Positions 3,164-45,742 of a stretch of DNA of 64,000 bases are shown in pieces. The notes below the pieces were generated by a model, which made no database searches, was not told where the DNA came from, and saw only the letters and a list, made by a program, of their open reading frames with translations. How positions within the stretch are numbered: the stretch's first letter is position 1; each line of letters begins with the position of its first letter. The translations under genes were made by a program, and so were the position numbers. The stretch comes from Candidatus Magasanikiibacteriota bacterium (GTDB taxonomy: Bacteria; Patescibacteriota; Patescibacteriia; Magasanikbacterales; GWA2-37-8): contig JACPGS010000029.1 of assembly GCA_016189025.1 (NCBI GenBank), forward strand, positions 15,911 to 79,910, written 5' to 3'.

Positions 3164-3407
3164 ACATTTATTGTTAAATTTGAATTAACCGCATATTCAC
3201 ATTATCACAATCTAGATTGATTTTCAAGTGACAGAAAGGAGCGAAAAAATACTTGCTGGCTGCCGAAAGCAGACAGCCCCCTCTTACAAAAAAAAGAATC
3301 AATTCGCCCCTCCTTATTAAAAATCCGAAAAGCGGAGCGGCAAAAAGGGAATGGTAAAAATGTATTTCGCCTAACTAGTTTTATGATTCTTTTACAGTCT
3401 TATTATA

Positions 3408-4841
3408 TCAGGCATTATTAGGCGGCGCAATGGCGGCGGGGGCGAAGACTTCCCGGAGGGTGGCAGGAGAAATTGTCCGTAAAAGCAGCGCCAGCAAGCC
3501 GTAAAGTAAGCCGCCGAGCCCCAGGGAAAGAATAAGGGGGAGCGGCTGGAGGGCGTAGATTGCCCCGCCCATGGCCCCGCTCGCCAGGATAATTTTAAGG
3601 AGAGTCGTAAGGCGGGGCCGCCAGCCACTGGCGCGGGCACAGAGTAGAGCAAGGCCGGCCCCGGCATAGAGTTCCGAGCCAATCGTTACCCCGATCGCGC
3701 CAGCGACGCCGTAGCGGGGGATGAAAATAAAATAGCCGATGAGAGACAGCAGCGCGTCGCTCCCGTAGATCAGGAGCGCGGTGGTTTGCCGGCCGATCGC
3801 CAAAGCGTAGTGGCCAAAGATCATGCCACCCGCCACTCCTAACAGCGACAGCGACAGTCCCTGCAGCATCCAGGCACCGGGGGCGAATTCTTTGCCGGCC
3901 ACGAAGGTCAGGACGCCGGGGGCAATGGCGATTAAACCAGCTACGGCCGGCCACAGCAATAAATTGATTAAATCAAACCCCAGTTGGGCGCGGCGCTGGA
4001 ATTCGGCAGTCAGATGCCGGCTCCAGGCGTGGGCGACGAGCGGCATTACCGTTCCCATAATCATCGCGGCGAGCTGAATGACAACCTCCACAATGCGATA
4101 ACTGGCGCCATATAGCCCCACAGTAGTCTGATCGGCAAACAAGGGCAGAATCACCCGGTCGCCCTGCAGGTAGACGGCGGTGGCAACAACGGCAAGAGCA
4201 GTGGGCCACATTTTGTGCCACAAGGCGCGCGAAATACTGCGGTCAAAGCAAAAGCGCAGGGGCCGGGCGCAGTAAGCTAGTATTAAAGCAGAGCCGAGGG
4301 CCGCGACCGTAACGGCGACCATAATGGCGGTAAATTGCTGACGGGCGACGAGGGAAAAGGCAATGCCGAGGAGCAGCAGGAGCCGGCCCAAAATTTCCGC
4401 TCCCATCACAATTTTCAATTTTAGCTGCTCCCGGAAATAGCCGATGAATACCTGGGACAGGGCAATGGCAAAAAATGCCAGGGTCAAAATTGCTACTGCT
4501 TGTTTCACTTCCTTAGGGTAAGGGAAAGCGAGAATCAGTAGCGGCGCTGCCCCCTGGAAAACAGTAGCCGAAATCAGCCGCCAGCTAAAGCAAGTATTAA
4601 GTACGCGGCGGCGGTCAAAGGTCGGTTCCGCGAGCAGCGCCGAGGTGGTGATAGTGAATCCGCCATCAGCCACCAGTCCCACAAATTGGAGGAAACCGGT
4701 GGCGGTTACATACCAGCCAAATTGTTCCACGCCCAAATAGCGCGTCATCAGGGCGATGGCAGCCAGCCCCAGCAGGGTGGAGACTAATTTACCCCCGAGT
4801 TGGATTAAGGTAGAGTGCGCCAGAGCGCGGGTGAGAGACAT
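3408..4841 (-). CDS. polysaccharide biosynthesis / oligosaccharide flippase (Wzx/MurJ-like MOP superfamily)
   Basis: 477 aa polytopic membrane protein with the N-terminal motif of Wzx-type flippases. Confidence 0.7.
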   Translation of the reverse strand: MSLTRALAHSTLIQLGGKLVSTLLGLAAIALMTRYLGVEQFGWYVTATGFLQFVGLVADGGFTITTSALLAEPTFDRRRVLNTCFSWRLISATVFQGAAPLLILAFPYPKEVKQAVAILTLAFFAIALSQVFIGYFREQLKLKIVMGAEILGRLLLLLGIAFSLVARQQFTAIMVAVTVAALGSALILAYCARPLRFCFDRSISRALWHKMWPTALAVVATAVYLQGDRVILPLFADQTTVGLYGASYRIVEVVIQLAAMIMGTVMPLVAHAWSRHLTAEFQRRAQLGFDLINLLLWPAVAGLIAIAPGVLTFVAGKEFAPGAWMLQGLSLSLLGVAGGMIFGHYALAIGRQTTALLIYGSDALLSLIGYFIFIPRYGVAGAIGVTIGSELYAGAGLALLCARASGWRPRLTTLLKIILASGAMGGAIYALQPLPLILSLGLGGLLYGLLALLLRTISPATLREVFAPAAIAPPNNA

Positions 4842-7660: not shown

Positions 7661-8275
7661 TCAATTCCGCACGTAATACCACACCGTCGCCAGGCCCCAG
7701 CCCAGGGCAAATTTGTCGGTATGAAAGCAGGTCAGGAAGGGCGCGTCTAAAGTGGCGGTAACGGAAATAATGCGGCTGCCGGGCTTTAGTTGTTGGCAGC
7801 GCTCGGTGAGTTGGGTTAAAAGATTTTCGCTAAAACAGGTGGCTTGAACAAAAATTACGTCCGCCTCGCTCCAGTCTTCGGTAAAAATATCGCCCGACCG
7901 GAAATTGATGTCTGGTTCGGGATAGCTCTGGGGCAGCGCCGGGCGGAGGCGTTGGTTAAATTTTTCCCGTACCGCCGCGGCGGTCTGGTAAAGTTCCGGG
8001 ATCAGCTCAATGCCGACTAAGCGGCGGAAATTCCCCAGGAGGGCGGCGAGTATCACCGCTTTGCCGGTGCCGCTCCCCAAATCATAAAAAGTGCCGCCGG
8101 GGGGTGCGTCGGCGGCGGCGAGCAGCGCCGGGAAGCTGGCAAAGTTAACTTCGCCGTAAGTGAGCTCTTTGGGCGGCGTTTGGCCCCAGTGTTGTTTTCC
8201 GGCGGCGGAGAGCCGGTAGCCGTCAATATCAGCATAAAGGAGGTTGAAGTAACGTTCGGCCAGACCCAGATTCAT
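7661..8275 (-). CDS. class I SAM-dependent methyltransferase
   Basis: YDLGSGTGKAVILAAL Rossmann SAM motif. ORF-track start 8368 lies inside a repeat element, so the likely true start is MNLGLAERY at 8275. Confidence 0.6.
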   Translation of the reverse strand: MNLGLAERYFNLLYADIDGYRLSAAGKQHWGQTPPKELTYGEVNFASFPALLAAADAPPGGTFYDLGSGTGKAVILAALLGNFRRLVGIELIPELYQTAAAVREKFNQRLRPALPQSYPEPDINFRSGDIFTEDWSEADVIFVQATCFSENLLTQLTERCQQLKPGSRIISVTATLDAPFLTCFHTDKFALGWGLATVWYYVRN

Positions 8276-8285
8276 ATTGTAAGAC

Positions 8286-8464
8286 TGTAGAAGAATGCTA
8301 ACTTTATCAGTATCCGCCTGGTCGCTATCGCTATTGCTAAGTTTAACCTGGTTGGTCGCGGCAGACACTCTTTGGGTGCTCCCCCGACTTTAGATCGGGG
8401 TGCGCGCCCAAAGACACTCGTCTGCCGCACCCTGATGCTAACTAGTTTTTCCCATTCTTCTACA
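8286..8464 (+). mobile_element. MITE-like repeat copy 1 (terminal inverted repeats tgtagaagaat/attcttctaca, internal long hairpin 8358..8428)
   Basis: About 88% identical to 45560..45739; 11-bp terminal inverted repeats; fills the whole intergenic space between the VKOR stop and the methyltransferase start. Confidence 0.65.
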
Positions 8465-8473
8465 ACCTCGTTG

Positions 8474-8944
8474 TTATAGGTTTTTTTCGTCTAGCGGCAG
8501 AGGCGTTTTTTTATTGTTGGCAGCGGATTTTTTGAAGTAGTAGAGAATCTGTATACCTAATACGAACAGTAGGGTAGAAGTAGCGGCGGAAACCAGGCAA
8601 TAGAGGCAATACGCGCCGATGACGAAAGCCTGGAGATAAAAAAACCAGAGGGTGGCGAGGAATCCCAAAACTGTTAGGCGAGCGAGCCAGCGCAGAATTA
8701 CTTCGCGACGGGTGTCCAGATAAGCCACGGCGCCCAAGAAGACGGCGAGATAATAGAGCGCTCCGAGGAGCGCCACCGGAATCTGATAGATCGTAGCGTA
8801 GCGGCTGGTGGTAACTACCTCGCAGCCCGCTAAGATTGAACAAGTCGGCGGCTCTCCTTGGTAGTGTTTAAGGGTAAGGTAACTGGCATCAACAAAACCC
8901 ACCAGACTGATTACCAGAAGGGCAAGGGCAAGCGGGCGAAGCAT
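8474..8944 (-). CDS. vitamin K epoxide reductase (VKOR) family protein
   Basis: 156 aa membrane protein with CSILAGC and CLYC motifs; adjacent DsbA-like gene. Confidence 0.7.
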   Translation of the reverse strand: MLRPLALALLVISLVGFVDASYLTLKHYQGEPPTCSILAGCEVVTTSRYATIYQIPVALLGALYYLAVFLGAVAYLDTRREVILRWLARLTVLGFLATLWFFYLQAFVIGAYCLYCLVSAATSTLLFVLGIQILYYFKKSAANNKKTPLPLDEKNL

Positions 8945-9694: not shown

Positions 9695-10342
9695 TTAGAT
9701 TTTGGTTAGCTGTTTTACTTCTTGGATAAAGAATCGTTTTACTGCCGGCCAAGAAATTTTGGTAAACATCTTGGGCATTGCTTGGGCGTCAGCTTCGGTA
9801 AAATAGGTGAGCGATTTATACAGATGATAGGGGTCGTAAGATACACCGGAGAATTGTTTCTGCAAAAAATTTAGCAACTGTTTCAAGGCGATTTGTTCTC
9901 GTTGCAAACAAAGATATAAATCGAGGAAATCCTTTTTGGTATTGCGTCCGGTAATCGCGCCGAGCTTCATCAGGGCAATATCGAGGGGGGTGGCCAAACG
10001 AATCCAGCCCCGGAAGCGAACCGGTTGCTGCCGGAGAGGATAGGGGAAAGTAATGAAGCTTACTTTCACGCCCGCCAGGATGCCTTCTACGGTGTTGGCC
10101 TCTTGATTAGTTAATTCAAAACGAGCCGTCTGTTTTAGTTGTTTTAGGAGCGGCGGGGCGGCAATATTTTTCGCGGTAAAAAAGTCCAAGTCCACCGATT
10201 GCCGGTGACCATAGTGCAGGGCGAGCGCCGTGCCGCCGGCCAAATAAAAATGCTGTAGCCAGCGTTTTCTGCTTAATTTGTTTAACAGACTAGCGGTGGC
10301 GGGGGCGAGCGTGCGGGCAAACATAGTTAGGCGATCTGCCAA
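9695..10342 (-). CDS. nucleotidyltransferase AbiEii/AbiGii toxin family protein
   Basis: AGGTALALHYGHRQSVDLDFF, the DUF1814/AbiEii N-terminal motif. Confidence 0.6.
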   Translation of the reverse strand: MADRLTMFARTLAPATASLLNKLSRKRWLQHFYLAGGTALALHYGHRQSVDLDFFTAKNIAAPPLLKQLKQTARFELTNQEANTVEGILAGVKVSFITFPYPLRQQPVRFRGWIRLATPLDIALMKLGAITGRNTKKDFLDLYLCLQREQIALKQLLNFLQKQFSGVSYDPYHLYKSLTYFTEADAQAMPKMFTKISWPAVKRFFIQEVKQLTKI

Positions 10343-10551
10343 AAATTTTTGGTTCGCCGCGAAGTGTTTTTACTGTGAGCGACAATCTGTTTAATGGCCG
10401 AGACGCCATACTGTTTTTTTAGCCACTGCACTGCCCGCCAGTCGCCTTTTTCGGTGAGGCGGGAAATAATAAAAGCGCGGTGTGCCGTTAAGCTAAGCTC
10501 TTGCTGGTCAACATCCCACATAAATTTTTTTACGGGGGCAGGCAGTGTCAT
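10327..10551 (-). CDS. small protein, putative cognate partner/antitoxin of the AbiEii-like gene
   Basis: 74 aa, overlaps the downstream AbiEii-like gene by 16 nt (operon). Confidence 0.4.
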   Translation of the reverse strand: MTLPAPVKKFMWDVDQQELSLTAHRAFIISRLTEKGDWRAVQWLKKQYGVSAIKQIVAHSKNTSRRTKNFWQIA

Positions 10552-10646: not shown

Positions 10647-10694
10647 AAGGGAGTATCAAAAATCCCGCATTGCCGCGGGATTTTTGATACTCCC
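10647..10694. promoter_or_regulatory. 21-bp perfect inverted repeat (agggagtatcaaaaatcccgc / gcgggatttttgatactccct, 6-bp spacer), followed by a second palindrome tgaaccgcgccgggttca
   Basis: Read directly from sequence; lies between the zinc-ribbon gene stop and the AbiEii-like operon start. Confidence 0.5.
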
Positions 10695-10775
10695 TGAACC
10701 GCGCCGGGTTCAGGGATACTCTTTTGTAGCTACCAAAGAGAGGTGCCCCTTTGACGTGTGGGGCGCACGGGAGTG

Positions 10776-30128: not shown

Positions 30129-30749
30129 ATGAAATATAGAGAAATACTCATCAGTCAGCTCAAATCTTTGCCTTATTTTAGCAAAGAAACGGTCGTATTG
30201 CTTAGCAAACAGTACGATCTGAAGCCCGCTACAGTTGATTCCTACATCAGCCGCTCTTTGGCGCGCAAAGATTTTATTGCCTTTAAAAATGGATTGTATG
30301 TTACGGCTGATTTTTATTACCAGAACGCCGGAGATATCTCGTACACATTTTATTTGGCCAATATAATGTGTCCGCCTTCGTACGTAAGCTCCTGGTCAGC
30401 TCTGCAGTACTATGAACTCGCCACCGAGGCCATTGGCACGGTAACGTCGGTAACGGCCAAAATTACCAGGATCCATAACAATCGGGCCGGGAGTTTTTCC
30501 TATCAGTTTATTAAAAAAAATTTATTTTCCGATTTTACCCTGATCCGGGGGAAGTTCGATTTTTTTATTGCCACGCCCGCTAAAGCGCTGTTTGATCTTA
30601 TCTATTTTAAAACTCACGCGTTCCGCGGCATCCGCGACATCGCCGCCGTAGATGGGATGATTGACAGTTTGCGCATTGATATTGCCGAAATGGAAACAAA
30701 AGAGCGCGATGCCTTTTATACAAAAGTAAAAAAATATTTGAGCATATGA
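30129..30749 (+). CDS. AbiEi-family antitoxin-like protein (type IV TA)
   Basis: 206 aa, N-terminal wHTH-like AbiEi_4 pattern (…IAFKNGLYVT…); overlaps the downstream AbiEii gene by 4 nt; about 38% GC. Confidence 0.55.
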   Translation: MKYREILISQLKSLPYFSKETVVLLSKQYDLKPATVDSYISRSLARKDFIAFKNGLYVTADFYYQNAGDISYTFYLANIMCPPSYVSSWSALQYYELATEAIGTVTSVTAKITRIHNNRAGSFSYQFIKKNLFSDFTLIRGKFDFFIATPAKALFDLIYFKTHAFRGIRDIAAVDGMIDSLRIDIAEMETKERDAFYTKVKKYLSI

Positions 30750-32029
30750 CCGCGACGAATCAGCTTTTTATTGCGCTTAAAACTAAGCTGGACAGTCTGT
30801 CGGCCTATGGTCCGGTGGATGCCGCAGTTAAGCGCAATATTCTGAAAGAAGAATTGCAGTATTATGTTTTGAATTTCCTCTACCACCATTCCGATTATAG
30901 TCAGTGGATTATGTACGGCGGTTCGGCCCTGCGGATTTGCCACGGGCTAAACAGGATGTCGGTAGATTTGGATTTTGAAATTCCGCAGCCGTGCGACGAC
31001 GCGTTTTTGCAGACGCTCGCCAACAGATTGTTGGACTATTTTAAAAATACTTATGCGGTGGAATCAGATTTTTTAACGATTAAAATTACCCGTCGGCGCG
31101 GGTTGACGCTTAAATTTATTGTCGGCGGGGTATTTGATACCGGTCATCCTTCCCCGCAGATACATGTTAAAATTGATCTGAATCATTTTGTGTCTAAAAA
31201 GCTGGTAATTGAGCGAATTCCTATCAATCACGACCAGCTGGCTTTTGTCATTACCACTTACAATATGTCGGCGCTGATGGCCAGTAAAATGGCGGCCATT
31301 TTTTCGCGGTCAAAGCGCGGCGTGGATAAAGAAATTTATGATGAAAAAGGCCGGGATATTTATGACTTGTTATGGTATATGGAAAAAAGAATTATACCCG
31401 ACTTAGATTATTTGAAAGAGAAAGTCCCAGAGATTGCCGATTTCAGGATAATGTTTGACCGGTTGACTGTAAAAATGAATACGGTAAGCGAAAAAAACCT
31501 GCGCGACGATTTAACGCCGCTGTTTGTGGAGCAGTCTTTTATTCAGAATTGGTTAATGAGCTGGCGCAGCAACTTTTTACGGTTAGTAAGGTCTTACGAC
31601 ATTAGAACGATCATAAAATTAGAAAAAATAAGCATCGGTAAAGAATTTCGTGCCGATAATTTTTTCTTTCATTTTATATACGCCACAGATAATGGACGCT
31701 TAACCACTATTAGTTGCTCGATTAGTGATTATTGGTTTTCCTTTCGCGAAGGCGACCTGACCGATTTAATCGCTCCGGTGAATGAAGAAATATTATCGCT
31801 GGTGGAGCACGTGTCCCAGGTGCAGATGAATGACAGAACCAAACAGTACATTGCTTTATTCTATAAAAAAGCAGAGGAATATCTTAAAAAAACGCACAAC
31901 GTTATTTTGGGTGATCGGCTTACCACCAAAACAATTCGGATGACTGCCGATAAGCTGAACCAGGGGGAACAAATAGTATTGAATAAATCGGCCTTACTTT
32001 CGTGCGAGCTGGAGGATTTGTTAAAGTAA
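30746..32029 (+). CDS. nucleotidyltransferase AbiEii/AbiGii toxin family protein with about 150-aa C-terminal extension
   Basis: YGGSALRICHGLNRMSVDLDF N-terminal NTase motif; 427 aa versus the usual 300 or so. Confidence 0.7.
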   Translation: MTATNQLFIALKTKLDSLSAYGPVDAAVKRNILKEELQYYVLNFLYHHSDYSQWIMYGGSALRICHGLNRMSVDLDFEIPQPCDDAFLQTLANRLLDYFKNTYAVESDFLTIKITRRRGLTLKFIVGGVFDTGHPSPQIHVKIDLNHFVSKKLVIERIPINHDQLAFVITTYNMSALMASKMAAIFSRSKRGVDKEIYDEKGRDIYDLLWYMEKRIIPDLDYLKEKVPEIADFRIMFDRLTVKMNTVSEKNLRDDLTPLFVEQSFIQNWLMSWRSNFLRLVRSYDIRTIIKLEKISIGKEFRADNFFFHFIYATDNGRLTTISCSISDYWFSFREGDLTDLIAPVNEEILSLVEHVSQVQMNDRTKQYIALFYKKAEEYLKKTHNVILGDRLTTKTIRMTADKLNQGEQIVLNKSALLSCELEDLLK

Positions 32030-32035: not shown

Positions 32036-32551
32036 ATGCAGCGCATCCTCGGCATTGATCCCGGCTTTGGGCGGATGGGCTATGGGGTGATAGAGAAAAA
32101 AGATAATGACTGGCGAGCGGTGGCATACGGTTGTCTGGAAACGTCGGTAAAAAAATCCTTCGTTGAGCGCCTGGCCGAAGTGCATGCCGCCGTCGGCAAA
32201 CTTATTAAAGAATACCAGCCCGGGCGCCTGGCCGTGGAGGAATTGTTTTTTTTCAAAAACGCCAAGACTGCCATGGCGGTGGCGCAGGCGCGAGGGGTGA
32301 TCATTTTGACAGCAGTAGAAAACGGCTTGCCGGTGGACGAGTTTACTCCGTTACAGGTAAAACAAGCCATGACCGGCTATGGCCGGGCCGAGAAGAGGCA
32401 GCTGCAGAAGCTAGTGGCGCTGCTCCTCGGCATTACAGGCAAGATAAAATCCGACGATGCCGCCGATGCCCTGGCCGTGGCGCTCACCGCGGGGCAGAGC
32501 TTATGGGCAAAAAATTATCAGGATATTGGAACAAACGAAAAAAAGTGCTAA
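32036..32551 (+). CDS. ruvC: crossover junction endodeoxyribonuclease RuvC
   Basis: ILGIDPGFGRMGYGVI…, acidic catalytic residues, 171 aa. Confidence 0.9.
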   Translation: MQRILGIDPGFGRMGYGVIEKKDNDWRAVAYGCLETSVKKSFVERLAEVHAAVGKLIKEYQPGRLAVEELFFFKNAKTAMAVAQARGVIILTAVENGLPVDEFTPLQVKQAMTGYGRAEKRQLQKLVALLLGITGKIKSDDAADALAVALTAGQSLWAKNYQDIGTNEKKC

Positions 32552-32562
32552 GATATTCTGGT

Positions 32563-33276
32563 ATGCAATCTACCCTTGCCCTCTTCCGCCGCCTCTACAA
32601 CACGCTGCCACCTTTAATCCCCGAGGCGACTAAACAAAAAATGGCGCACGCAGTGCAGCACCTGGAAGCCGACCCCACGGTGTCGCTTGCCGAAGTAGAA
32701 GACACGATGATTGCGTTTGGCCAGGAAGTATGGCCCTGGAGCCAGGCTTACCGCGAATTTCTGGCGCTGGCCGAGGCGCGGGTAGGCGAACATTTTTTAC
32801 TGCCTAAATTGTCGCCGGCGCTGCAGCATAAATATCATGAATTCCGGTTGTACGGCGGCACGCTCCGCGATTTACATTCGGGTCGTCCCGCCGAGTGGTT
32901 TACGGCCGAGGAACGGGGGGAGCTGTGCGGCGCGCTCGTTGCGGTGCAGCAGGAATTGCGCGAATATGTTAATCGCGCCCTGGTGGGGCTGGAGAAAACC
33001 CGGTATCTGCGCCGCGTTAATGAGTTTACGGAAATTCTTAAATCAATCCGCGGGCAGCTGCAGGCGCTGAACGTACTGGCGGCCTCCGAGCAGCAGCATC
33101 CGACCTTGGCGAGCGAAATCCGCGCCCAGGTGCGGGCGTTTGAGCTGGGGTTATGCTTGTTGGCGCCCGAGCCCGACCATGGCGCGGTCTGCCGCTCGGT
33201 GGATTTCTTTAACAGCCGTCGCGAACATCTGCAGCGCTTAACTACCTTGGGGGTGTTTGCCCCGGCGGGCAATTGA
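32563..33276 (+). CDS. hypothetical protein
   Basis: ORF track 32503..33276 trimmed to MQSTLALF to avoid overlap with ruvC. Confidence 0.4.
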   Translation: MQSTLALFRRLYNTLPPLIPEATKQKMAHAVQHLEADPTVSLAEVEDTMIAFGQEVWPWSQAYREFLALAEARVGEHFLLPKLSPALQHKYHEFRLYGGTLRDLHSGRPAEWFTAEERGELCGALVAVQQELREYVNRALVGLEKTRYLRRVNEFTEILKSIRGQLQALNVLAASEQQHPTLASEIRAQVRAFELGLCLLAPEPDHGAVCRSVDFFNSRREHLQRLTTLGVFAPAGN

Positions 33277-33321
33277 CGATTCACCACCGGCGGTATATCT
33301 TAATCAGCATTATAATGAGAC

Positions 33322-33492
33322 TATAGAAGAATAGAACAACCAGCCAGCATCAGGTCGCGACCGATGAGTTCTCTTTTGGCGCGCAACTTTAGTGAGCACC
33401 AAAAGAGTGTCGGTCGCGACCAACCAGGCAGTTTTCCGCAATAGCGATAGCGACCAGGTTAAAAATGTGGTATAGCCAGCATTCTTTTCCAG
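33322..33492 (-). mobile_element. MITE-like repeat copy 3 (degenerate, inverted relative to copies 1 and 2)
   Basis: Matches the reverse complement of copy 1 in blocks (tagaagaat, agcatcagg, caatagcgatagcgaccagg, agcattctt) with a reorganised central hairpin; overlaps the predicted start of the arginine decarboxylase gene. Confidence 0.55.
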
Positions 33493-34892
33493 TCTTAATT
33501 TATTACTCAACAGCATCAGTTGTGTCCAAAAAGAACTTCAAAAAATTCTGGAAACTGGGCCGCCGGGATTTTAGCACCGAACATTTTGACATTAACCCCG
33601 ACGGCGAGCTCGTCATCCGCGAAGGCAACTATCAGTATAATGTTTTGGATTTGGTGCGCAAATTCGGCTCGCCCACTGAAGTTTTTTTGCCTTTTGTGCT
33701 GGAGGAGCGCCTGGAGCGCCTGTTCGACGTGGCCGAGCAAGAGATGAAGCGCCATCATTATCGCGGCAAGTTTTTTTATCACTACCCGATGAAGGTGAAC
33801 CAGAACCGGGAATTCGTACTGCCCTTAGTTTCCGAAGGGGCGCACTTGGAAGTGGGTTCACCCAACGAGCTGTGGCTGGTGAAAAAGCTTTGGGAGGGAG
33901 AAAATTTCCACGCTAAAATCCGGGTGCTCTGCAACGGCCCCAAAACGCCGCGCTACATTAACCTCATCACCGGCCTGCAATCCCAGGGGCTGGCGATTGT
34001 GCCGATTATTGAAGATGCCGAAGAATTGCGTTTGTTAAAAGATTTTCGCGGCGAACTGGGCGTGCGCATTAATCTGCAGTCAAAAGTGCAGTCGCACTGG
34101 GACAAAAAGATTGATCGCTTCGGCTTGTTGGAGGAGGAAATTTTAAGTTTGGGAAAAATTCGCAACCTCAAAATTCTCCATTATCACATTGGCTCACAGG
34201 TAGAACGCGAGAACGACCTATTGGCGGTGCTGAAAGAAGCGTTGCGCGCTTATGTCAAGGTGCGCGCGCAAAACCCTTCGCTTGATACCCTGGACGTCGG
34301 CGGGGGGTTTGCCGTGCCCTACGAGAAAAAGCCGATGTATACCGTGGAGTCGGTGTTGCGGCGAATGTTTTCGGCGCTGGCAAACGCCTCGGCCGCGGCC
34401 GGCATCCCGCACCCCAATTTGATTGTGGAATGGGGCCGGCACCTGGCCGCGCCAGCGCAAATTTCGGTTTTTAAAGTAGTGGCCACCAAGGTAATCCCTA
34501 AAGGCATTGCTAAGTTCTGGTACGTGATTGATGGGAGTTTCATGACGGATTTGCTGGATACCTGGTCGATCCATCAAAAGTGGCATATTGTTCCGGTTGG
34601 CCACGCGGGCGCGGAAAAACGCCACCGCGTTTGGCTGGGCGGTTTGACCTGCGATTCCGACGACAAATACGCTGATGCCGAAGGATATGTGCTCTTGCCC
34701 CGGATAGAGGATTTGGGGCCAGGCGAGGATTTGTACTTGGCGATTTTTGACACCGGCGCCTACCAGGATTCCTTTGCCATGCATCATTGCCTGATTTCTA
34801 GTCCGGCCAAGATTGTGCTGCAGAATGGCCTGGTTACCATGGCGCGCAAGCGCGAATCGCCGGAAGAGATCGGCAAGATGTTTGGGTGGTAG
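33465..34892 (+). CDS. speA: arginine decarboxylase (Orn/DAP/Arg decarboxylase family 2, SpeA-like); start uncertain
   Basis: YPMKVNQN PLP-lysine motif, LEVGSPNEL block; first 28 nt lie inside repeat copy 3. Confidence 0.7.
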   Translation: MWYSQHSFPVLIYYSTASVVSKKNFKKFWKLGRRDFSTEHFDINPDGELVIREGNYQYNVLDLVRKFGSPTEVFLPFVLEERLERLFDVAEQEMKRHHYRGKFFYHYPMKVNQNREFVLPLVSEGAHLEVGSPNELWLVKKLWEGENFHAKIRVLCNGPKTPRYINLITGLQSQGLAIVPIIEDAEELRLLKDFRGELGVRINLQSKVQSHWDKKIDRFGLLEEEILSLGKIRNLKILHYHIGSQVERENDLLAVLKEALRAYVKVRAQNPSLDTLDVGGGFAVPYEKKPMYTVESVLRRMFSALANASAAAGIPHPNLIVEWGRHLAAPAQISVFKVVATKVIPKGIAKFWYVIDGSFMTDLLDTWSIHQKWHIVPVGHAGAEKRHRVWLGGLTCDSDDKYADAEGYVLLPRIEDLGPGEDLYLAIFDTGAYQDSFAMHHCLISSPAKIVLQNGLVTMARKRESPEEIGKMFGW

Positions 34893-34954
34893 AGGCGCAG
34901 CTGGTAGCTGGTAGGAAGTAGCTGGTAGGCGAACGGCAAAAATTTGTATGCTAT

Positions 34955-35839
34955 ATGATTTTAACTTTAAAGAATAACCCGGGGGCGGCTCTTTTTGGGC
35001 TGGCGTTGAGTTTGATTTTGGCTTCAACTGCCGCAGCGCAAACAAATGTTTCAGGTAGTGGAGTAGGCAGGTCTAAAGTACCGGTGAGCCAGGCCGGTGA
35101 AACGTGCTATACCAATACAAAAGCCAGTGCTGTTAAGAACAGCCGGATATCGGTATTAACCTACATGCAAAGTGCGGCGAAAAATTCTAAAGACGTACAG
35201 CCGTATTTGGAATCTTGGCGAAAAATGTTTTTATTAAAAAACCGCATGAGCAATACATATTTTAAAGAACATGTTATTTACCCAACCTTTGTGAGGAAAG
35301 AACAGAAAAAAGTGAAGGGGGCGGATTATGTGGTGTTTAGAGTATTTTTACAGCTTAAGTTTGGCGACTATTATATAAGCGAAGTGCACCCGAAAGATGA
35401 CAGGATTTCATTATTAACAGGTACCGGCAAAGAGAAACGGAATGAGTTTGTTAACAGCAACGAATTTTTGGTCCGGATGGTTAAAGGCAAACCGCTGCCC
35501 GCCGCGCTTGTCCTGCAGAGGTATAAAGCGCGCTATATTGCCAAGACTCTTAAACCCGGCCATAAAAATTATGATGATGTAATCGCTAATGTTGGTAGTA
35601 TCAGAATTAATGGTAAATTGCCAGCGGTGTTGGCAGGTTGTGGAATGGCCATCGAGAGCGCTCTGGATTGCCCCGGTATACAGTATTTGCCTGCTTTAAC
35701 TTATGACGCACGGAATAATAAAGTAGCGTTGTTAGGGAGCGGAGAAAATGGTGATCAATGCTATTCGTCAGAAGTTAATTTAATCACGGGCAAGGCAGCG
35801 TGCCAGGGGCCGTTTGCTTGTATGAAAATTGGTTTGTAA
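34955..35839 (+). CDS. secreted hypothetical protein (signal peptide, Cys-rich C-terminus)
   Basis: 294 aa, AT-rich, interrupts the polyamine operon. Confidence 0.5.
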   Translation: MILTLKNNPGAALFGLALSLILASTAAAQTNVSGSGVGRSKVPVSQAGETCYTNTKASAVKNSRISVLTYMQSAAKNSKDVQPYLESWRKMFLLKNRMSNTYFKEHVIYPTFVRKEQKKVKGADYVVFRVFLQLKFGDYYISEVHPKDDRISLLTGTGKEKRNEFVNSNEFLVRMVKGKPLPAALVLQRYKARYIAKTLKPGHKNYDDVIANVGSIRINGKLPAVLAGCGMAIESALDCPGIQYLPALTYDARNNKVALLGSGENGDQCYSSEVNLITGKAACQGPFACMKIGL

Positions 35840-35850
35840 GCAAGTAGGTT

Positions 35851-36963
35851 TTGCAATTGTTTATGCAAAATTCTAAATTTGCCAAACTTTCTCCCAGCCT
35901 GCGCCAGCTTATTGTATTGGAAGCAAAGCAGTCTAGAACAGGGGCCATTAGTCCGTATGTATCGGCGAGCAAAACTCCGGTATCGGCCTATGCCCAGGAA
36001 ACGCTCCAGCACTGCAATGCCGTGGCCACGCTCCAGGCTGCCTTATGGCTCAAAAACCATTTAGACCACGGCGGCAAGCTGGTGGTAACGCTCGCCGGCG
36101 CTTTGAGTTCATTTCAAATTGGCGTGATGCTGGCGGAACTTATCCGTAAAAATAAGGTGCATTTAATTTCCGCTACGGCTGCCAATCACGAAGAATCGTA
36201 TTATCGCTACGTGGCGCATTCCCATTACGCTTACATTCCACGCTATACCGAGCTTACCCCGGCGCAAGAGGCGGAACTGCGCGATGCGGGCTTGCGCCGG
36301 ATTACCGACACGTTTTTGCCGGAAGACCAGAGTGTGCGCATTATGGAACCGCACCTGCTCCGGATGTGGAAGCGGGCGCAAAAGAAGGGCGAACGGTATT
36401 TTCCGCACGAATACTTCGGGCGGTTGTTTGAGCAGAAATTAATTAAGCCTGACCTCCAGGCTAACCCCTACGACTGCTGGGCCTATGCTGCCTGGCAGAA
36501 GAAAGTGCCGATTGTCGTGCCCGGGTTTGAAGACTCCACTATGGGCAATATCTTTGCCAGTTATTGCTACGCCGGTAAATATCGGCAGGATAAAGGCCCG
36601 CGGCTTAATCCCCAGATTATGAAAACCGGGCTGGAGTATTTTGGTTTCCTCTACGACTGGTACCTGGATACTGCCAAAAAATCATCCATTGCTTTTTTGC
36701 AACTAGGCGGCGGCATTGCGGCGGATTTTCCTATCTGTGTAGTCCCTTCGTTGAAACATGACCTGCGCCTTAAAAACGTGCGCCCCTGGGCCGGGTTTAT
36801 AGAAATCGGCTCCAGCCCCATGTCCTACGGCTCTTACTCCGGCGCCGGCGGCAAAGAAAAAATCACCTGGGATAAACTAGACCCTGCGAGCTATTACCAA
36901 ATTATTCAGAGCGACGTAACCGTAGTGTTCCCCTGGATCGCGGCGGTGTTATTGGGGTTATAA
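35851..36963 (+). CDS. deoxyhypusine synthase-like protein (probable homospermidine synthase)
   Basis: 370 aa, DHS family blocks (…TLAGALSSFQIGVMLAELIRKNKVHLISATAANHEES…). Confidence 0.65.
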   Translation: MQLFMQNSKFAKLSPSLRQLIVLEAKQSRTGAISPYVSASKTPVSAYAQETLQHCNAVATLQAALWLKNHLDHGGKLVVTLAGALSSFQIGVMLAELIRKNKVHLISATAANHEESYYRYVAHSHYAYIPRYTELTPAQEAELRDAGLRRITDTFLPEDQSVRIMEPHLLRMWKRAQKKGERYFPHEYFGRLFEQKLIKPDLQANPYDCWAYAAWQKKVPIVVPGFEDSTMGNIFASYCYAGKYRQDKGPRLNPQIMKTGLEYFGFLYDWYLDTAKKSSIAFLQLGGGIAADFPICVVPSLKHDLRLKNVRPWAGFIEIGSSPMSYGSYSGAGGKEKITWDKLDPASYYQIIQSDVTVVFPWIAAVLLGL

Positions 36964-36968
36964 TTATT

Positions 36969-37376
36969 ATGCTTTTAGTAAAAACTAAAATTGGGCCGAG
37001 TAAAATTCATGGTATCGGATTGTTTGCGGATGAATTTATTCCTAAAGGCAAACTGATGTGGCGGGTGGAGCATGATTTTGATCTTGAGTTTGAGGCCAGT
37101 CAGCTGGTCAATTTATCCGCTCCGTCCCGAGCGCAGTTTTTGAAATATTCTTACCGACATCCGAAGACGGGGAAGTACGTTCTGCCTTTTGACGATGCTC
37201 GTTTTTTTAATCACGCTGATCATCCGAACATTAACAGCGTCTATCCCAACGGTAATAACGGCGAATGTGATGTAGGTATTGCGGCGCAAGATATTATGGC
37301 TGGCGAAGAATTGACGTGCAATTATCGGGAGTTTGATGCCGATAGCGTTGTAAAATTAGAGTTTGAAGCCGGTTAA
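36969..37376 (+). CDS. SET domain protein (putative lysine methyltransferase)
   Basis: GIGLFA…, FFNHADHPN, GEELTCNY SET motifs; 135 aa. Confidence 0.75.
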   Translation: MLLVKTKIGPSKIHGIGLFADEFIPKGKLMWRVEHDFDLEFEASQLVNLSAPSRAQFLKYSYRHPKTGKYVLPFDDARFFNHADHPNINSVYPNGNNGECDVGIAAQDIMAGEELTCNYREFDADSVVKLEFEAG

Positions 37377-37378
37377 TT

Positions 37379-38455
37379 ATGAGCGGTGTTGTTAAAAATT
37401 CTAAATTGCAAAAAATCTCCTCTTACGATCCCGGCGGTATTTACACCAATGGTCAATTATTCGGCTTACCGTTTACCAACCAGGAATCCGAAGTAGTGAT
37501 TGTGCCGATGCCGTGGGAAGTTACCACGTCGTACCGCGACGGCACGGCGCAGGGGCCGCGGACAGTGCTCAAAGCATCGTATCAGGTAGACTTGTACGAC
37601 CTGGATGCTCCCGAAGCTTGGGAATTAGGTATCGGGATTCAGCCGATTTCCTCTGCTTGGAGCCGGCAGAATACTGTATTGCGGCGCCAAGCAAAAAAAT
37701 ATCTGGATTATCTGTATAATGGCGGCGACACCAGAGTAAAGTGGGTGCGCCAGACGCTGGCGGAAATTAACCAAGCCGGGGCCGAGCTAAATGGCTGGAT
37801 GAAAAAGGAAACTGCCAAATTGCTAAAACAAAATAAATTAGTGGGGGTATTAGGCGGGGAGCATAGCGTATCGCTTGGATTTATGCAGGCGCTGGCGGAG
37901 CAATATCCCCGGTATTCCATATTGCACCTTGATGCCCACGCTGACTATCGCGCGGCTTATGAAGGGTTTGAATTTTCTCACGCCTCTATCCAGTATAACG
38001 CGGGGAAGATTAAGCAGGTGGACCGGCAGGTGCTGGTCGGCATCCGCGATTATTCGCACGCCGAGGCGCAGCGCATCGCCGAATCGCACGGCCGAATTGC
38101 GGCGTTTCCGGATAGAGAAATAAAGCGCGGCGCCTACGCGGGAAAAACGTGGCAAGCGCAATGCGGCGAAATTATTAAGCCGCTCTCTAAAGAAGTTTAT
38201 ATCAGTTTTGATATTGATATCCTAGACCCCTCGCTGTGTCCGCATACCGGCACGCCGGTGCCGGGCGGCCTGGAGTTTGAACAGGTATTTTATCTGATTG
38301 AAGCCGTCATCAAGAGCGGGCGTAAAATTATCGGTTTCGATCTGTGCGAGGTGGCGCCAGGCGTTGGCAATAACGGCGAATGGGATGCCATCGTCGGGGC
38401 GCGGGTGCTGTATCGCCTGGCTATTTTAATGGCTAAATCACAGCGGCGAATATAG
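37379..38455 (+). CDS. speB: agmatinase / arginase-family ureohydrolase
   Basis: HLDAHADY, SFDIDILDP manganese-binding motifs; adjacent to speA-like gene. Confidence 0.75.
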   Translation: MSGVVKNSKLQKISSYDPGGIYTNGQLFGLPFTNQESEVVIVPMPWEVTTSYRDGTAQGPRTVLKASYQVDLYDLDAPEAWELGIGIQPISSAWSRQNTVLRRQAKKYLDYLYNGGDTRVKWVRQTLAEINQAGAELNGWMKKETAKLLKQNKLVGVLGGEHSVSLGFMQALAEQYPRYSILHLDAHADYRAAYEGFEFSHASIQYNAGKIKQVDRQVLVGIRDYSHAEAQRIAESHGRIAAFPDREIKRGAYAGKTWQAQCGEIIKPLSKEVYISFDIDILDPSLCPHTGTPVPGGLEFEQVFYLIEAVIKSGRKIIGFDLCEVAPGVGNNGEWDAIVGARVLYRLAILMAKSQRRI

Positions 38456-38492
38456 TTTGAATACGCAAGTAGTCTAATTTAGTCGCTCGGTC

Positions 38493-38559
38493 GTGGTAGA
38501 CACCCTCCGTGCTCCCCCCGCCTACGCGGGGGTGCGCGCGCAGGGAACCCGTCTACCAC
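38493..38559. repeat. palindromic structured element related to the MITE core (gtggtagac…gtgctcccccc-hairpin-gggggtgcgcgc…gtctaccac)
   Basis: Same architecture and partial sequence as 8358..8428 and 45633..45703, but without MITE arms. Confidence 0.55.
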
Positions 38560-38593
38560 TCCCTCACTCGTTGCAATATTTACAGTAATTTTT

Positions 38594-39112
38594 ATGGTCA
38601 AAGTTTTACTGATCATCGCCCACGACGGCTTCCAGCCCGTGGAGTATGGCGAACCAAAACGTATTCTCACGGAGGCAGGGATTACGGTGGTAACGGCCAG
38701 CAATATGTCGGGAATGGCGACTGCTGCCCATACCGGCGAGCAGGTAGCGATTGATTGTACGCTTGATCATGTCCAGGCGGGCGATTACGACGGCATATTT
38801 TTTGTCGGCGGCCCGGGCGCTCTAGAACATTTGGATAATGAACAATCCTACGAAATCGCGCGCGCGGCCGCGGCCCTGGGCAAGCCCTGGGGAGCAATTT
38901 GCATCTCCACGCGGATTTTGGCGCACGCGGGCGTGCTCAAAAACAAAACCGCCACCGGGTGGGATGGCGACAATGAACTGGGCGGAATTTTAGCGGCCGC
39001 TGGCGCCACGTATTTACGCGAGCCAGTCGCGGTAGACGGCCTGCTGATTACCGCCGCCGGCCCGACCGCGGCCCTGGCCTGGAGCCAAAAAATTCTGGCG
39101 GCGTTGCGCTAG
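38594..39112 (+). CDS. DJ-1/PfpI family protein
   Basis: 172 aa class-I glutamine amidotransferase-like fold, GAICIS nucleophile-elbow region. Confidence 0.7.
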   Translation: MVKVLLIIAHDGFQPVEYGEPKRILTEAGITVVTASNMSGMATAAHTGEQVAIDCTLDHVQAGDYDGIFFVGGPGALEHLDNEQSYEIARAAAALGKPWGAICISTRILAHAGVLKNKTATGWDGDNELGGILAAAGATYLREPVAVDGLLITAAGPTAALAWSQKILAALR

Positions 39113-40394: not shown

Positions 40395-43300
40395 TTAAAT
40401 TTCTACTACCGGATGTTCTCCTTCTGGATTCCAATTGGCGTAGCCATTAAAATTGGTTACTGGTTCTTTTATCAAAGTGACCTTAGGCTGTTCCTTAAAA
40501 TGCTGCTCATAATATCGTGCCACCTCGGGACGATTAGTGCTTGATCGTGATGTCTGATCAAGCGGTACTACGGTATGGGGAATGTTGCGTTGTGCTGCTA
40601 TCTGGCGTAGCGCGGCAAGAGTTTGCGCTATTAGTGTATCAGGCACTACCTGACTAAGCAATCCCTCTTGCGGGTTATTAGCTCGCACCAAGAGCACCAG
40701 CTCACCTTGAGGCGTTTTAGTTTCAATGGCGAGGACCGAGCCCCGCAGGCGTTCCTGGGGAGTATGGCGACCCGTAACAAAGATCAAGGGAGTAATGGTG
40801 CGATATTCACCGCGGGCGAACGCTCGGTGGTGGCTAGTAAAACAAGCATCGCCAATGTCACCAGCATAGATTCGTAAGATACCGCGCACCGGCACCAAGG
40901 TAACCTCTACAGTTTTCCCGCCCGCCTTTACTAGCGGAGTTTCTGTCTGCTGCAAAGCAGACAATTGTTCGGCGGCGATCACCAAAGGGTGCTTTTGCAG
41001 TTTGGGTTTTATCCCCCACACTAACTGTAGTTCTTTCAATAAGGTACTGGAAAACGGTTGGTGTCCGGTACGATGCTCTTCCTGTTTATTATTTAGATAA
41101 TGCTCGTTAAGGTATTCCCCTAAATGGTTATACCAGAGCTCCACTTGGGTGGCAGAAGATACCTCGGTGTTCTCTTCCAGAGCACGTTCTATTACTGATT
41201 GTCGGCCGTCCGGCATTACCAGTAGTGAGTGGTAAGCGCTGATGATCTGCAATAGTCGATCACGATCAATTACCTTTTTCGGCAGCAGCATCAGGATAGC
41301 TTCCAACCAGCTGATTAGTTCCCGGTCGCGTGCCCCCCGGTCAGGGGAAAGAGTTGGAGCTTCCAGGCGTTCCAGTGTTGCCCGGGTTTCCACCAGCGTT
41401 TGACGTTGTCTGGTCAGTGCTTTGCGATTAACGGGTTTCTCGGTTTCCCAAGCAGTAGCTAGTTCATCCAACCTGGCAATTTGTTGATCAATCTCCAATA
41501 CCAGGCGCTGGTGTTCTTCCGCCCACCAGTGAGGGAGTTGGTCAATGTTCCGGGCAGTCCGGTAGGCAACGTCAAGTTTTTTTACCCACCCCCGTAGGTC
41601 GGGGTTAGTGAGAATTTCTTGTTCGCGTGCTGCCTGCGCCTGGGGAATTTGTTCTCGGCTGCTTGCCACTGATGGCAACTTAAAGGTTACTTCTTGGTAT
41701 CCCGCGGGGAGGGCAGCTTGGTCGGGATTAGCAGCGACGGTGGTTTGCCAAAGCTGAATATTTTTTCGGGGGTCATCATTTTTTTGTTCCCAACTAGTAG
41801 CTCCTTTAATTGCATGAAAAAACTCTAAACCGAGGTCGGTATTTAGTTCCGGTGGGACTTGATCAGCCAGTAAGGCAGTTTGCAGGCGGCGCCCGAATTT
41901 TTTAATCTCGTTGATAATAAATCCTTTATTGGGTAATTCTTCCAGCCGGATGCCGAGAGTACTGGTTAATTCTTGTCGTACTTCGGCGGGCAGGTCAGTG
42001 ATTTTTTCGGACCGAGAAATGGCCACATGCCAGCGGAGGAGGGTAGGCAAATTATACATGCCGTAGGTATGCACAAAATCTTTCAACAGTTCTGCATCTT
42101 CGGCACTGTCACGTCGCAGTACTCCCCGCGTCAGTGCCTGCTCTACCAGCGGGTCTAGGTCAGTTTTCCAAGGATCATATTTTTCCCGTGCCGCGCGGGG
42201 GTGGCTTTTTAACAATTTTCCATATATGGGCTGCCAGGAAAAATTTTCGGCCAAAGAGTTTAGAGTTTCGGGGGGCAGCAGCGCCTGGAGGATCGCCGGA
42301 TATTTCAGAAATTCCGTGGGACAAAAAAAGGAAGGGGGTAGCTCGACAAAGGCTTGGCGGAGATTGGCTTGGGTTTCGGCAGGGTAGGCCATCGTCAGTT
42401 CGGTTATTTTTTTTTGGTAAAAGCCGTCGTGCAACAATTCAAGGTTAAGGGTAGGGAGACGTTGAATAATAGTATGGATAATTTCTCGTCTTTCTTCCAG
42501 CGAGAGGGGGAAGGCGGAGTACTTTAGGCGTTCCCAAGGGTTTTCGCGGCATAAGCGCAGTTTTACGGCGGAGATTTCCTCTGGGGATAGTTGAAGTTTT
42601 GCCAGAACCCCTTCATCAAGAAGATGAAAAACATGCCGACCAACCAATATATCAATAATACTATCGCGCTCGGGACGGGTAAACTCAACAGGAATTATGG
42701 GTAGGGAACTGGTTTCATGGTCAGCCACTTCGGTCAACCACTTTAAGCGTTGTTCCGGGGTGAGGGGAATTATGGGGTAAAAACGAGTCAGGTAATTATA
42801 ATAAATAGGAATAGCAGCATCTATTATTTTTGCTTGTTCGGCCTCGGGTAAAGCAAGGAAGAGGGGTTCAAATTCATCAAAATCCCGGATAATCGTAGCG
42901 GGGTTGTATTTTTGGCGCGCCGCAAAAATAGCGGGTGCGGCTGCGGTGCGATGTTCGGGGGGAAAGTCACGGAGAGAGAAACGTTGCAGCATTGACGGTT
43001 TAGTTCCTTGCGTCTGCAGTTGGGAAAAAATTTCATAACGCACTGCCGGAGTCCATTCTTGGCTGTCCCGATAGTAACCAGTTGCCACCGAAGCTAAGAC
43101 GTCCGGAAGATTGCCAAGCCTTTCCTTTATACAAGGGAGGATTTCGGTGCTGGTCTGGCAGGATTTCCTGGCCAGTTCATATAATTCATTAGCAGCGCTG
43201 TCGACCCCAGGAGTTTCGTCCGGCAGTTGGCGATAGAAAGCAATTGTCGGTTCTAACCCTTCGGCCAATTTTTCCTGTAGTCGCTTATCTACCATCTTGG

Positions 43301-44600: not shown

Positions 44601-45545
44601 TCATTTTAATTTGTTTAGATAATCAATCGCCGTGAGCGCGGCGGTTACTCCCTGGCCGGCGGCAATGGCGATTTGTTTGTAGGGAATATTGGTAACGTCG
44701 CCGGCGGCGAAAATTCCCGGGCAGCTGGTGCGGCCGAGCAGGTCCACTTCAATTTCGCCCTGGGCATTTTTTTTGACGCAGTCAATAAACTGCGAATTGG
44801 GAATCATGCCGACGTGCACCATCACCCCCTGCACGGCAATTTGCTGGACTTGGCCGGCCGCATCTTGATACTTCAGCCCCGTTACCACCTTGTCACCCAC
44901 AATTTCCGTGGTGTTGGCCTCGTAAATAATTTCCACATTTTTTGCCGCTTTTACTTTTTCAATCAAAATCGCCTCGCCCTTGGGGAAGCCGCCCTGGGTA
45001 GCCGGGGTATTGGGGTATTTAGTGAGTAAATATACTTTACTGGCGATTTCCATCATCATCAGCGCCGATTCCAGGGCGCTGTTGCCGGCGCCGATGGTGG
45101 CGGTAACCTTGCCGGTAAATAACGGCCCGTCGCAGACAGTGCAGGAGGTAACGCCGTGGTGCAGTAGCGGTTTTTCTCCCGGTACGCCTAACTCCCGAGG
45201 GTGAATGCCGGTGCCAACAATCACGGTTTTAGTCTGGTAAGTTTTGATTTCGCCGGCGGAATTTTTGGCGGTAACGACGTGATAGTTTTTTTCCGGTTTA
45301 ACTGAAATTACCTCGGCGCCTTCGTCAGCCGCGACGCCATAGGATTTCAAGTGTTCCGCGAATTTTTCCGCCAGGTCAAACCCTTGAATATCAATAATGC
45401 CCGGCCAGTTGTTGACCGCGCCGGAGAGCGCCACTTCGCCGCCCAGGTCTTTGGCAATTATCAGGAAGTTCAGTTTGCGCCGGGCGGCGTAAATACCCGC
45501 AGCCGAGCCGACCGCCGCGCCGCCGATGACAATTAAATCGTACAT
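44601..45545 (-). CDS. trxB: thioredoxin-disulfide reductase
   Basis: GGAAVGSAAGIYAARR FAD motif, SCTVCDG redox-active disulfide. Confidence 0.9.
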   Translation of the reverse strand: MYDLIVIGGAAVGSAAGIYAARRKLNFLIIAKDLGGEVALSGAVNNWPGIIDIQGFDLAEKFAEHLKSYGVAADEGAEVISVKPEKNYHVVTAKNSAGEIKTYQTKTVIVGTGIHPRELGVPGEKPLLHHGVTSCTVCDGPLFTGKVTATIGAGNSALESALMMMEIASKVYLLTKYPNTPATQGGFPKGEAILIEKVKAAKNVEIIYEANTTEIVGDKVVTGLKYQDAAGQVQQIAVQGVMVHVGMIPNSQFIDCVKKNAQGEIEVDLLGRTSCPGIFAAGDVTNIPYKQIAIAAGQGVTAALTAIDYLNKLK

Positions 45546-45559
45546 AATTAAGCTGAGAT

Positions 45560-45739
45560 TGTAGAAGAATGTTGACGATAATCGTTATCTGCCTAGTCGC
45601 TATCGCTATTGCTAAAATTAGCCTGGTTAGTCGCGGCAGACACTCTTTGGGTGCTCCCCCGACTTTAGATCGGGGTGCGCGCCCAAAGATACTCGTCTGC
45701 CGCTCCCTAATGCTGACTGGTATTTTTAATTCTTCTACA
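45560..45739 (+). mobile_element. MITE-like repeat copy 2 (terminal inverted repeats, hairpin 45633..45703)
   Basis: Near-identical to 8286..8464; occupies the rpe-trxB intergenic region and ends 14 nt before the trxB start codon. Confidence 0.65.
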
Positions 45740-45742
45740 GTC

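Follow-up and report, generated by a model that had tools for sequence, protein, structure and literature searches.

Why should the genome of a member of the Candidate Phyla Radiation (CPR)/Patescibacteria, whose genomes are small and gene-dense, carry nearly identical sequences of roughly 190 bp in the spacers between unrelated genes? This question is raised by a 64,000-nucleotide stretch of contig JACPGS010000029.1 (assembly GCA_016189025.1, a Candidatus Magasanikbacteria genome), hereafter called the window, in which a preliminary description had pointed out two such repeats and had proposed that they are copies of a non-autonomous transposon resembling a MITE (miniature inverted-repeat transposable element). 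The analysis presented here leads us to think, with a probability of about 0.6, that these repeats and the further copies described below form a family of MITE-like non-autonomous DNA transposons. MITE-like elements are essentially undescribed in this phylum (no description of MITEs in CPR/Patescibacteria was found in the full-text literature searched), and the structured core of the present ones is unusually well preserved.

Copies, ends, and probable insertion footprint

The repeat family is represented in the window by three full copies (A, B, and C) and two partial ones (D and E). Copy A measures 191 bp (8280-8470, plus strand), copy B 192 bp (45554-45745, plus strand), and copy C, which is about 70% identical to A and B, 182 bp (33316-33497, minus strand). 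The near-identity of A and B noted previously (about 88%) was recovered over the ungapped 164-nt repeat (88%), while the gapped alignment of the two regions gave 90% and that of the full 191/192-bp elements 85% identity. A 31-nt word taken from the core occurs exactly twice, versus 0.00 expected. Copies C and D were found by performing a low-stringency blastn comparison of the window with copies A and B. Run unfiltered over the whole window, a covariance model based on A, B, and C gave these copies scores of 220, 228, and 183 bits, respectively, and added copy E, a diverged relative restricted to the core (38458-38582, plus strand; 50 bits, E = 7e-12), the match spanning positions 38434-38592. 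What copy E has in common with the others is the core hairpin plus about 20 nt adjoining it on one side; its closing stem is its own. Copy D is a relic consisting of a solo right end (CCTAACTAGTTTTATGATTCTTTTACAGTCTTA; 3370-3402, plus strand), in which 28 of the 33 positions match the family. These searches of the window have brought to light a third full copy, a core-only copy, and a solo end, and the two repeats first described are not the only ones.

Copies A and B are bounded by the 11-nt inverted repeats TGTAGAAGAAT / ATTCTTCTACA, which are perfect in both copies, as had been reported. However, since the similarity in the A/B/C alignment reaches 6 nt past these ends, the true length of the terminal inverted repeat is 17 nt (TGAGATTGTAGAAGAAT / ATTCTTCTACAGTCTCA; 94% complementary in B), and the element ends read 5'-TGAGACTGTAGAAGAAT. 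In copy A, the left terminal inverted repeat is TAAGACTGTAGAAGAAT (8280-8296, plus strand) and the right one is ATTCTTCTACAACCTCG (8454-8470, plus strand), the outer 6 nt of which are degenerate. The terminal inverted repeats of copy C are degenerate.

With the boundaries of A and B set by the homology between copies, exact 3-bp direct repeats can be read on both sides of these two elements: TTG in the case of A (8277-8279 and 8471-8473) and AGC in that of B (45551-45553 and 45746-45748), the right-hand AGC being also the last codon (Ala) of the rpe gene. Putative target duplications are seen in this way in two of the three full copies. When element A and one of its repeats are deleted, a compact junction results, which reads VKOR-TAA CAA T ATG-methyltransferase, and the same operation at B gives rpe ...GTA GCT TAA TT ATG-trxB; the reconstructed empty junctions are ...TAACAATATG... 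and ...GTAGCTTAATTATG.... The present stop codon of rpe (TGA, 45743-45745) is the terminal TCA of element B, and Rpe ends in ...LVA today and would do so in the restored junction as well. The chance of finding two exact 3-bp repeats at pre-defined boundaries is about (1/64)^2, i.e. about 2e-4, before any correction for choices. The repeats at A and B argue well for insertion by a transposase, without being conclusive.

The restored junctions fit the genome in which they occur. The median spacer between co-directional genes amounts here to 38 nt, and a Shine-Dalgarno (SD) motif was found upstream of only 4 of the 48 window genes, two of these four being mere 4-nt matches. The gene starts of the window are preceded by AT-rich runs (for example, TAATT-ATG, AAAT-ATG, or ATTT-ATG), as are those of the restored junctions, which suggests that initiation in this organism is SD-independent.

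The core hairpin and the interior of the element

The imperfect palindrome of about 71 nt mentioned in the preliminary description is present in both A (8358-8428, plus strand) and B (45633-45703, plus strand), where the 71-nt core hairpins differ by a single base. The corresponding hairpin of copy C is 61 nt long (33357-33417, minus strand) and shows compensatory changes with respect to A and B, and that of copy E is located at 38493-38559 (plus strand). The centre of the hairpin, GTGCTC ... TGCGCGC, is identical in A, B, C, and E, and this motif occurs four times in the window versus 0.13 expected. The stems around it differ between copies: the outer stem is GCGGCAGAC / GTCTGCCGC in A and B, GCGACCGAC / ATCGGTCGC in C, and GTGGTAGAC / GTCTACCAC in E; the middle stem is CTTTGGG / CCCAAAG in A and B, CTTTTGG / CCAAAAG in C, and CCCT / AGGG in E; and the apical stem, which is absent in C, is CCCCGA / TCGGGG in A and B and CCCCCGC / GCGGGGG in E.

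The whole element is predicted to fold on itself, with a terminal stem and a core hairpin of 60-71 nt, at about -70 to -88 kcal/mol. Copies A and B give -75 to -88 kcal/mol on either strand, with a z score of about -8 versus dinucleotide shuffles. The minimum free energies (MFEs) of the two strands are -83.7 versus -81.3 kcal/mol in A, -80.0 versus -88.0 kcal/mol in B, and -69.6 versus -71.0 kcal/mol in C. The invariant centre contains a U-G pair on the non-gene-sense strand and a C-A mismatch at the same place on the gene-sense strand. A count of G-U versus A-C pairs had at first seemed to favour the gene-sense strand; this assignment was withdrawn, as the MFE values do not discriminate between the strands and the centre pairs better on the other one.

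The stems have been kept by paired substitutions around the invariant centre, which indicates that the hairpin is under selection. In an RNAalifold prediction based on an alignment that was not fitted to the model, three pairs of the long stem were found at which C differs two-sidedly from A and B with the pairing kept. In the A/B/C/E alignment, which was fitted to the covariance model and hence leans toward the structure, 96% of the cells are paired, and two-sided changes affect 20 pairs, versus 6.4 +/- 2.1 in column shuffles and 0-4 when the partners are slid by 1-3 columns. The alignment of A with B contains 28 differing columns, only one of which lies in the 71-nt core (hypergeometric P = 1.4e-5). 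Since the arms of these copies have diverged by about 22% while the core has remained almost unchanged, the copies are not recent and the hairpin has been maintained, either by purifying selection or, in the case of A and B, by conversion. That something specifically reads the hairpin would account for this most simply; the putative identity of such a reader is discussed below.

Between the element ends, conserved blocks alternate with variable linkers (A/B/C alignment), and the hairpin separates asymmetric arms of about 60 nt and about 25 nt. The sub-terminal direct repeats announced previously do occur, in the form of a ATGCTAAC-like motif near both ends (at 8295-8302 and 8435-8442 in A). 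Within each copy, this motif changes in concert at the two ends: GCTAAC / GCTAAC in A, GTTGAC / GCTGAC in B, and GCTGGC / GCTGGC in C, i.e. TAAC/TAAC, TGAC/TGAC, and TGGC/TGGC. The two sites are direct, not inverted, repeats and pair with each other in none of the predicted folds; their co-variation might reflect intra-element conversion or a protein binding both sites. The block GGTCGCTATCGCTATTGC (8320-8337, plus strand, in A) is identical in A and C, and B differs from it only at the first base (AGTCGCTATCGCTATTGC); this block, (G/A)GTCGCTATCGCTATTGC in the family as a whole, lies largely outside the two main helices in the MFE predictions. Another conserved block, GCCTGGTTrGTCGCG, was found in the interior of the element.

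Searches with Rfam over the window yielded no match at the gathering thresholds, and copies A and E gave only chance-level matches at E <= 10. Several known structures were considered and rejected. The CUGAUGA of a hammerhead core is broken in B, and there is no Rfam signal for it; in the cases of K-turns, attC sites, retrons, repeats of diversity-generating retroelements (DGRs), and 6S-like RNAs, a required partner gene or motif is lacking and again Rfam gave no signal. As regards integron attC sites in particular, these have inverted R''/R' core sites (RYYYAAC ... GTTRRRY) and belong to cassette arrays beside an integrase gene; here, the GCTAAC motifs are direct instead of inverted, the copies are flanked by housekeeping genes, and the proteins scanned yielded no integrase.

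Genomic setting and alternative explanations

All five copies sit between co-directional genes, the functions of which are unrelated; relative to transcription, A, B, C, and D are all oriented alike, whereas E runs the opposite way. Copies A and B each fill the spacer between two minus-strand genes, as had been observed before: a VKOR-family gene (8474-8944) and a DOT1-like methyltransferase gene (7661-8275; Pfam) in the case of A, and rpe (45743-46381) and trxB (44601-45545) in that of B. The distance of 10-14 nt to the downstream gene given in the preliminary description is that at which the 11-nt inverted repeat ends before the ATG (10 nt in A and 14 nt in B), the full element ending 4 nt (A) or 8 nt (B) before it. 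Copy C is located between an open reading frame (ORF) at 32503-33276, an exact look-up of which returned no record, and an arginine/ornithine decarboxylase gene with a GTG start at 33522 (Pfam), both on the plus strand. Copy E is located between an agmatinase-family gene (37379-38455) and a DJ-1/PfpI gene (38594-39112), also on the plus strand (Pfam). Relic D lies 5 nt from the stop codon of the minus-strand gene 3408-4841. The genes downstream of A, B, C, and E, which encode the methyltransferase, TrxB, the arginine/ornithine decarboxylase, and DJ-1/PfpI, have no function in common. Copies C and E bracket a polyamine/hypusine-type cluster (33522-39112) consisting of genes for arginine decarboxylase, an unknown protein, a deoxyhypusine synthase homologue, a SET-domain protein, agmatinase, and DJ-1; in the relative GCA_030650025.1, the same polyamine/hypusine-type genes also form a cluster, from which the repeats are missing.

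The nearest relative of TrxB other than an identical protein is 79% identical, and the others do not exceed 72%. Exact look-ups of TrxB, Rpe, and VKOR led to 15 short Logan contigs (runs SRR12113385 to SRR12113433), all of which terminate inside the element, at the junction downstream of VKOR in the case of A and on both sides of B. The element accounts for the breaks that short-read assemblies of this organism show here. The contigs stop earlier than the similarity between A and B alone would cause in a k=31 graph, which suggests that further, mosaic copies are present in the Logan samples. The closest relative of trxB (79%) lies on a 995-bp contig ending in a ATCTTCTA tandem repeat and is uninformative on the element; on this contig (L022), the tandem ATCTTCTA repeat occupies positions 1-38, upstream of trxB, and bears a faint, perhaps coincidental, likeness to the right end of the family (TCTTCTACAATCT). 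In two distant relatives (about 70% amino acid identity), the gene order is kept and the element is absent, the rpe-trxB spacer measuring 42 nt and the agmatinase-DJ-1 spacer 16 nt.

The family was also sought further afield. Applied to about 40 kb of two related Magasanikbacteria genomes, the covariance model detected generic hairpins only, and a pattern for the centre motif had a single match in the loci examined, inside a coding region. A 20-mer from the apical hairpin had one chance match in 185,579 species genomes, in a terminator-like hairpin of Bdellovibrio; a 22-mer from the stem retrieved only two identical, unrelated coding sequences from the JGI metagenomes; and three patterns gave nothing, or chance matches inside coding sequences, in viral contigs. 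A blastn search in the 'distant' mode against plasmids and phages gave no match.

Several of these results weigh against MITE-like transposons. No empty-site allele was found, as every contig carrying the exact flanking proteins (the 15 Logan contigs) also carries the element. Outside this organism, the exact-word scans gave chance matches only, although these scans used A/B-type or single words and are insensitive to diverged copies. No transposase was detected among the approximately 48 window proteins scanned with Pfam, nor were any integrase or Y1 transposase; the window contains no further occurrence of the inverted repeat, and copy E is devoid of it. At the boundaries of C equivalent to those of A and B, the flanks read AAT / TTA, without any 3-bp repeat, and an AAT repeat appears only after both boundaries are shifted inward by 1 nt. 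The divergence of A from B gives no sign of recent movement, and the counts of G-U versus A-C pairs are mixed between the strands, neither of which is favoured. The non-autonomous transposon proposed in the preliminary description is supported by the 17-nt ends, the 3-bp repeats at A and B, the location of the copies beside unrelated genes, and their non-coding character, whereas an empty-site allele and a transposase are the parts of the picture that did not come to light. On balance, the family may well have been mobile, judging from its insertion footprint.

If so, the elements would have been inserted by a transposase supplied in trans and making 3-bp target duplications, as the footprint at A and B suggests; the TG...CA ends in combination with a 3-bp duplication might point to an IS3-like enzyme as the mobiliser. 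The surviving copies would be those occupying gaps of a few nucleotides between co-directional genes, where the proteins are left unaltered. Because they are located inside presumed operons, the copies are expected to be transcribed within polycistronic mRNAs. The hairpin would probably serve as a specific binding site, and its reader could be either the enzyme that mobilises the element or a factor of the host that binds or processes RNA or DNA, similar to RNase III in the case of the Correia elements. In A and B, 0-3 nt separate the stop codon of the upstream gene from the 5' arm of the 17-bp terminal stem, the 3' arm of which ends 4-8 nt before the downstream ATG. We speculate that in these two copies a terminating ribosome would open the terminal stem and free the downstream start, and that this opening would keep the translational coupling of the original 2-4-nt junction. 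Such an unzipping by the ribosome could explain why insertions at such junctions have been tolerated in a genome with SD-less starts. Insertion exactly at the stop/start junctions of operons, followed by compensatory maintenance of the hairpin, would provide an example of a streamlined genome tolerating or exploiting mobile DNA.

The explanation that comes next, which we regard as possible although not likely, is that the repeats are host-functional structured intergenic elements resembling repetitive extragenic palindromes (REP) and bacterial interspersed mosaic elements (BIME), i.e. domesticated or native hairpins acting on operon mRNA or DNA. They might function as mRNA stability barriers or processing sites, or as binding sites for nucleoid proteins or topoisomerases, and would be under purifying selection in place, transposition being at most ancient. 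A core frozen between arms that have diverged by 22% is what this explanation would lead one to expect, as are the covariation and the invariant centre found even in E, where the inverted repeats have been lost or were never present, and the occurrence of four of the five copies in one orientation relative to transcription. Moreover, because the genome is compact (median spacer 38 nt), 190-bp passengers that persist in it invite a functional explanation. The target duplications and the restorable junctions at A and B nevertheless point to arrival by insertion, the downstream genes are functionally unrelated, and no homologue was found in the 40 kb of related genomes examined. Nor do the copies share any terminator or promoter signal: A and B contain no hairpin followed by a T-run inside the element, a small sub-stem followed by CTCTTTT in C scores as terminator-like in an orientation antisense to the flanking genes, and no sigma-70-like promoter common to the copies was found. 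The suggestion made earlier that the element supplies a terminator to the upstream gene and expression signals to the downstream one is not borne out. A functional role of the hairpin is largely compatible with MITE-like transposons and does not exclude them.

A still more tentative idea is one about which we are rather doubtful: the GUGCUC / UGCGCGC hairpin, with its covarying stems and its conserved G-U or C-A position, might be an undescribed functional nucleic acid motif of Magasanikbacteria, i.e. a protein-binding or processing site riding on and outliving MITEs and co-opted to control expression or translational coupling in operons of a streamlined genome with SD-less starts. Should a host factor prove to read the hairpin, it would represent a novel structured motif with a regulatory role, in a phylum with almost no known RNA biology. 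The covariance model obtained here can be used for a census of the family.

Two other explanations are much less probable. The first is that the copies are REPINs or other REP-type elements moved as single-stranded DNA by a REP-associated tyrosine transposase (RAYT; HUH, IS200/IS605-like) recognising an imperfect hairpin. The long imperfect hairpin, the compensatory changes, and the conserved unpaired or wobble positions do recall the behaviour of REPINs (PMC3116915), and a GTAG tetranucleotide occurs in the terminal repeat. The 3-bp direct repeats flanking A and B, however, are difficult to reconcile with this mechanism, and between the 17-nt terminal inverted repeats lie arms of unequal length (about 60 and 25 nt) instead of two inverted REPs, while no Y1 transposase is present among the window proteins scanned. 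HUH-mediated insertion is not known to make target duplications.

The second is that the element, of which there are several paralogous copies, acts as a cis-regulatory leader RNA (riboswitch- or attenuator-like) or else is a small RNA gene in its own right. The structure is indeed very stable and covarying, and A, B, and C lie directly upstream of a start codon. This seems to us most improbable, given that the downstream genes (DOT1-like methyltransferase, TrxB, arginine decarboxylase, and DJ-1) share no function, that E is oppositely oriented, and that no Rfam match exceeds the chance level, even at E <= 10. The copies share no promoter or terminator, the relatives lack the element in their orthologous spacers, and inverted ends and target duplications are not properties of a leader.

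Lastly, a small protein encoded by the element is hardly conceivable: A and B do contain open frames of 61-65 codons on both strands, including an ATG-initiated 61-codon ORF in B (45569-45754), but a 1-nt indel shifts the ATG of A out of frame, that frame is interrupted in C by an 11-nt deletion and an early stop, no reading frame is conserved between copies, the six-frame peptides of A and B matched none of 5.8 billion proteins, and the stem substitutions are compensatory and not synonymous in pattern, so that this explanation is effectively refuted by the frame-breaking indels.

The window contains other features. A DGR is probably present at 47118-49517, where the arrangement of the variable repeat, the template repeat, and the reverse transcriptase fits this type of element: two 122-nt repeats, which are 83% identical, occur at 47454-47575, where a 156-codon ORF has its 3' end, and at 47956-48077, the mismatches falling on adenines in the second copy (16 A to G, 5 A to T, and 4 A to C), and the pair is followed by a reverse transcriptase gene (48405-49517; Pfam RVT_1, E = 5.6e-23). 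Two AbiEii-family nucleotidyltransferase toxin genes (type IV toxin-antitoxin) are located at 9695-10551 and 30746-32029, the first of which forms a pair with a DUF6922 gene. Downstream of this AbiEii/DUF6922 pair, the 224-nt spacer harbors a perfect inverted repeat of 21 bp, the loop of which measures 6 nt (10648-10695; AGGGAGTATCAAAAATCCCGC / GCGGGATTTTTGATACTCCCT), and, next to it, a second hairpin (TGAACCGCGCCGGGTTCA), neither of which is related in sequence to the repeat family. A 1158-codon ORF (40395-43871) has no Pfam match, and the same is true of the ORFs at 55338-56543, 56608-57597, 60540-61457, and 62289-63569.

Comparison with known systems

Prokaryotic MITEs are defined as elements of 50-800 bp with terminal inverted repeats of at least 10-15 bp and target duplications of 2-10 bp, which carry no transposase (PMC11602168; PMC3184786). 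The present family resembles bacterial MITEs in its size (182-192 bp), its 17-nt inverted ends, its lack of coding capacity, and its multiple dispersed intergenic copies; a putative short target duplication flanks two of its three full copies. It differs from typical MITEs in that the copies are old and the interior, instead of being decaying filler, is a covarying hairpin with an invariant centre. No parent insertion sequence or transposase with matching ends was found within the window.

The Correia elements of Neisseria (CREE/NEMIS) are about 100-190 bp long, have inverted ends, and are co-transcribed with genes, their long hairpin being a substrate of RNase III (PMC2649163). The present family resembles them in its similar size, its inverted ends, its location adjacent to genes, and its long hairpin. 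There is no sequence similarity, however: the ends consist of 17 nt (TGAGACTGTAGAAGAAT), the Correia repeat being 26 bp long, the duplications are TTG and AGC and not TA, the host belongs to another phylum, and no outward promoter or integration host factor site is recognisable in this family.

The enterobacterial repetitive intergenic consensus sequences or intergenic repeat units (ERIC/IRU) are 127-bp imperfect palindromes that lie within operons, in intergenic regions that are transcribed, that affect the mRNA in an orientation-dependent manner, and that are not known to have a defined target duplication. They are similar to the present family in size and in being imperfect palindromes; they have no sequence relationship with it and belong to another lineage.

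REPINs and REPs, which are associated with RAYT transposases, are intergenic hairpins, the stems of which are kept by compensatory change within one genome (PMC3116915, PMC8266576). The present family is likewise a hairpin-forming intergenic repeat with compensatory stem changes, but it differs from REPINs in its putative target duplications, its true terminal inverted repeats, and its asymmetric arms, and no RAYT gene was seen in the window. The Correia elements and the REPINs are its nearest functional analogues, and it fails the defining features of both.

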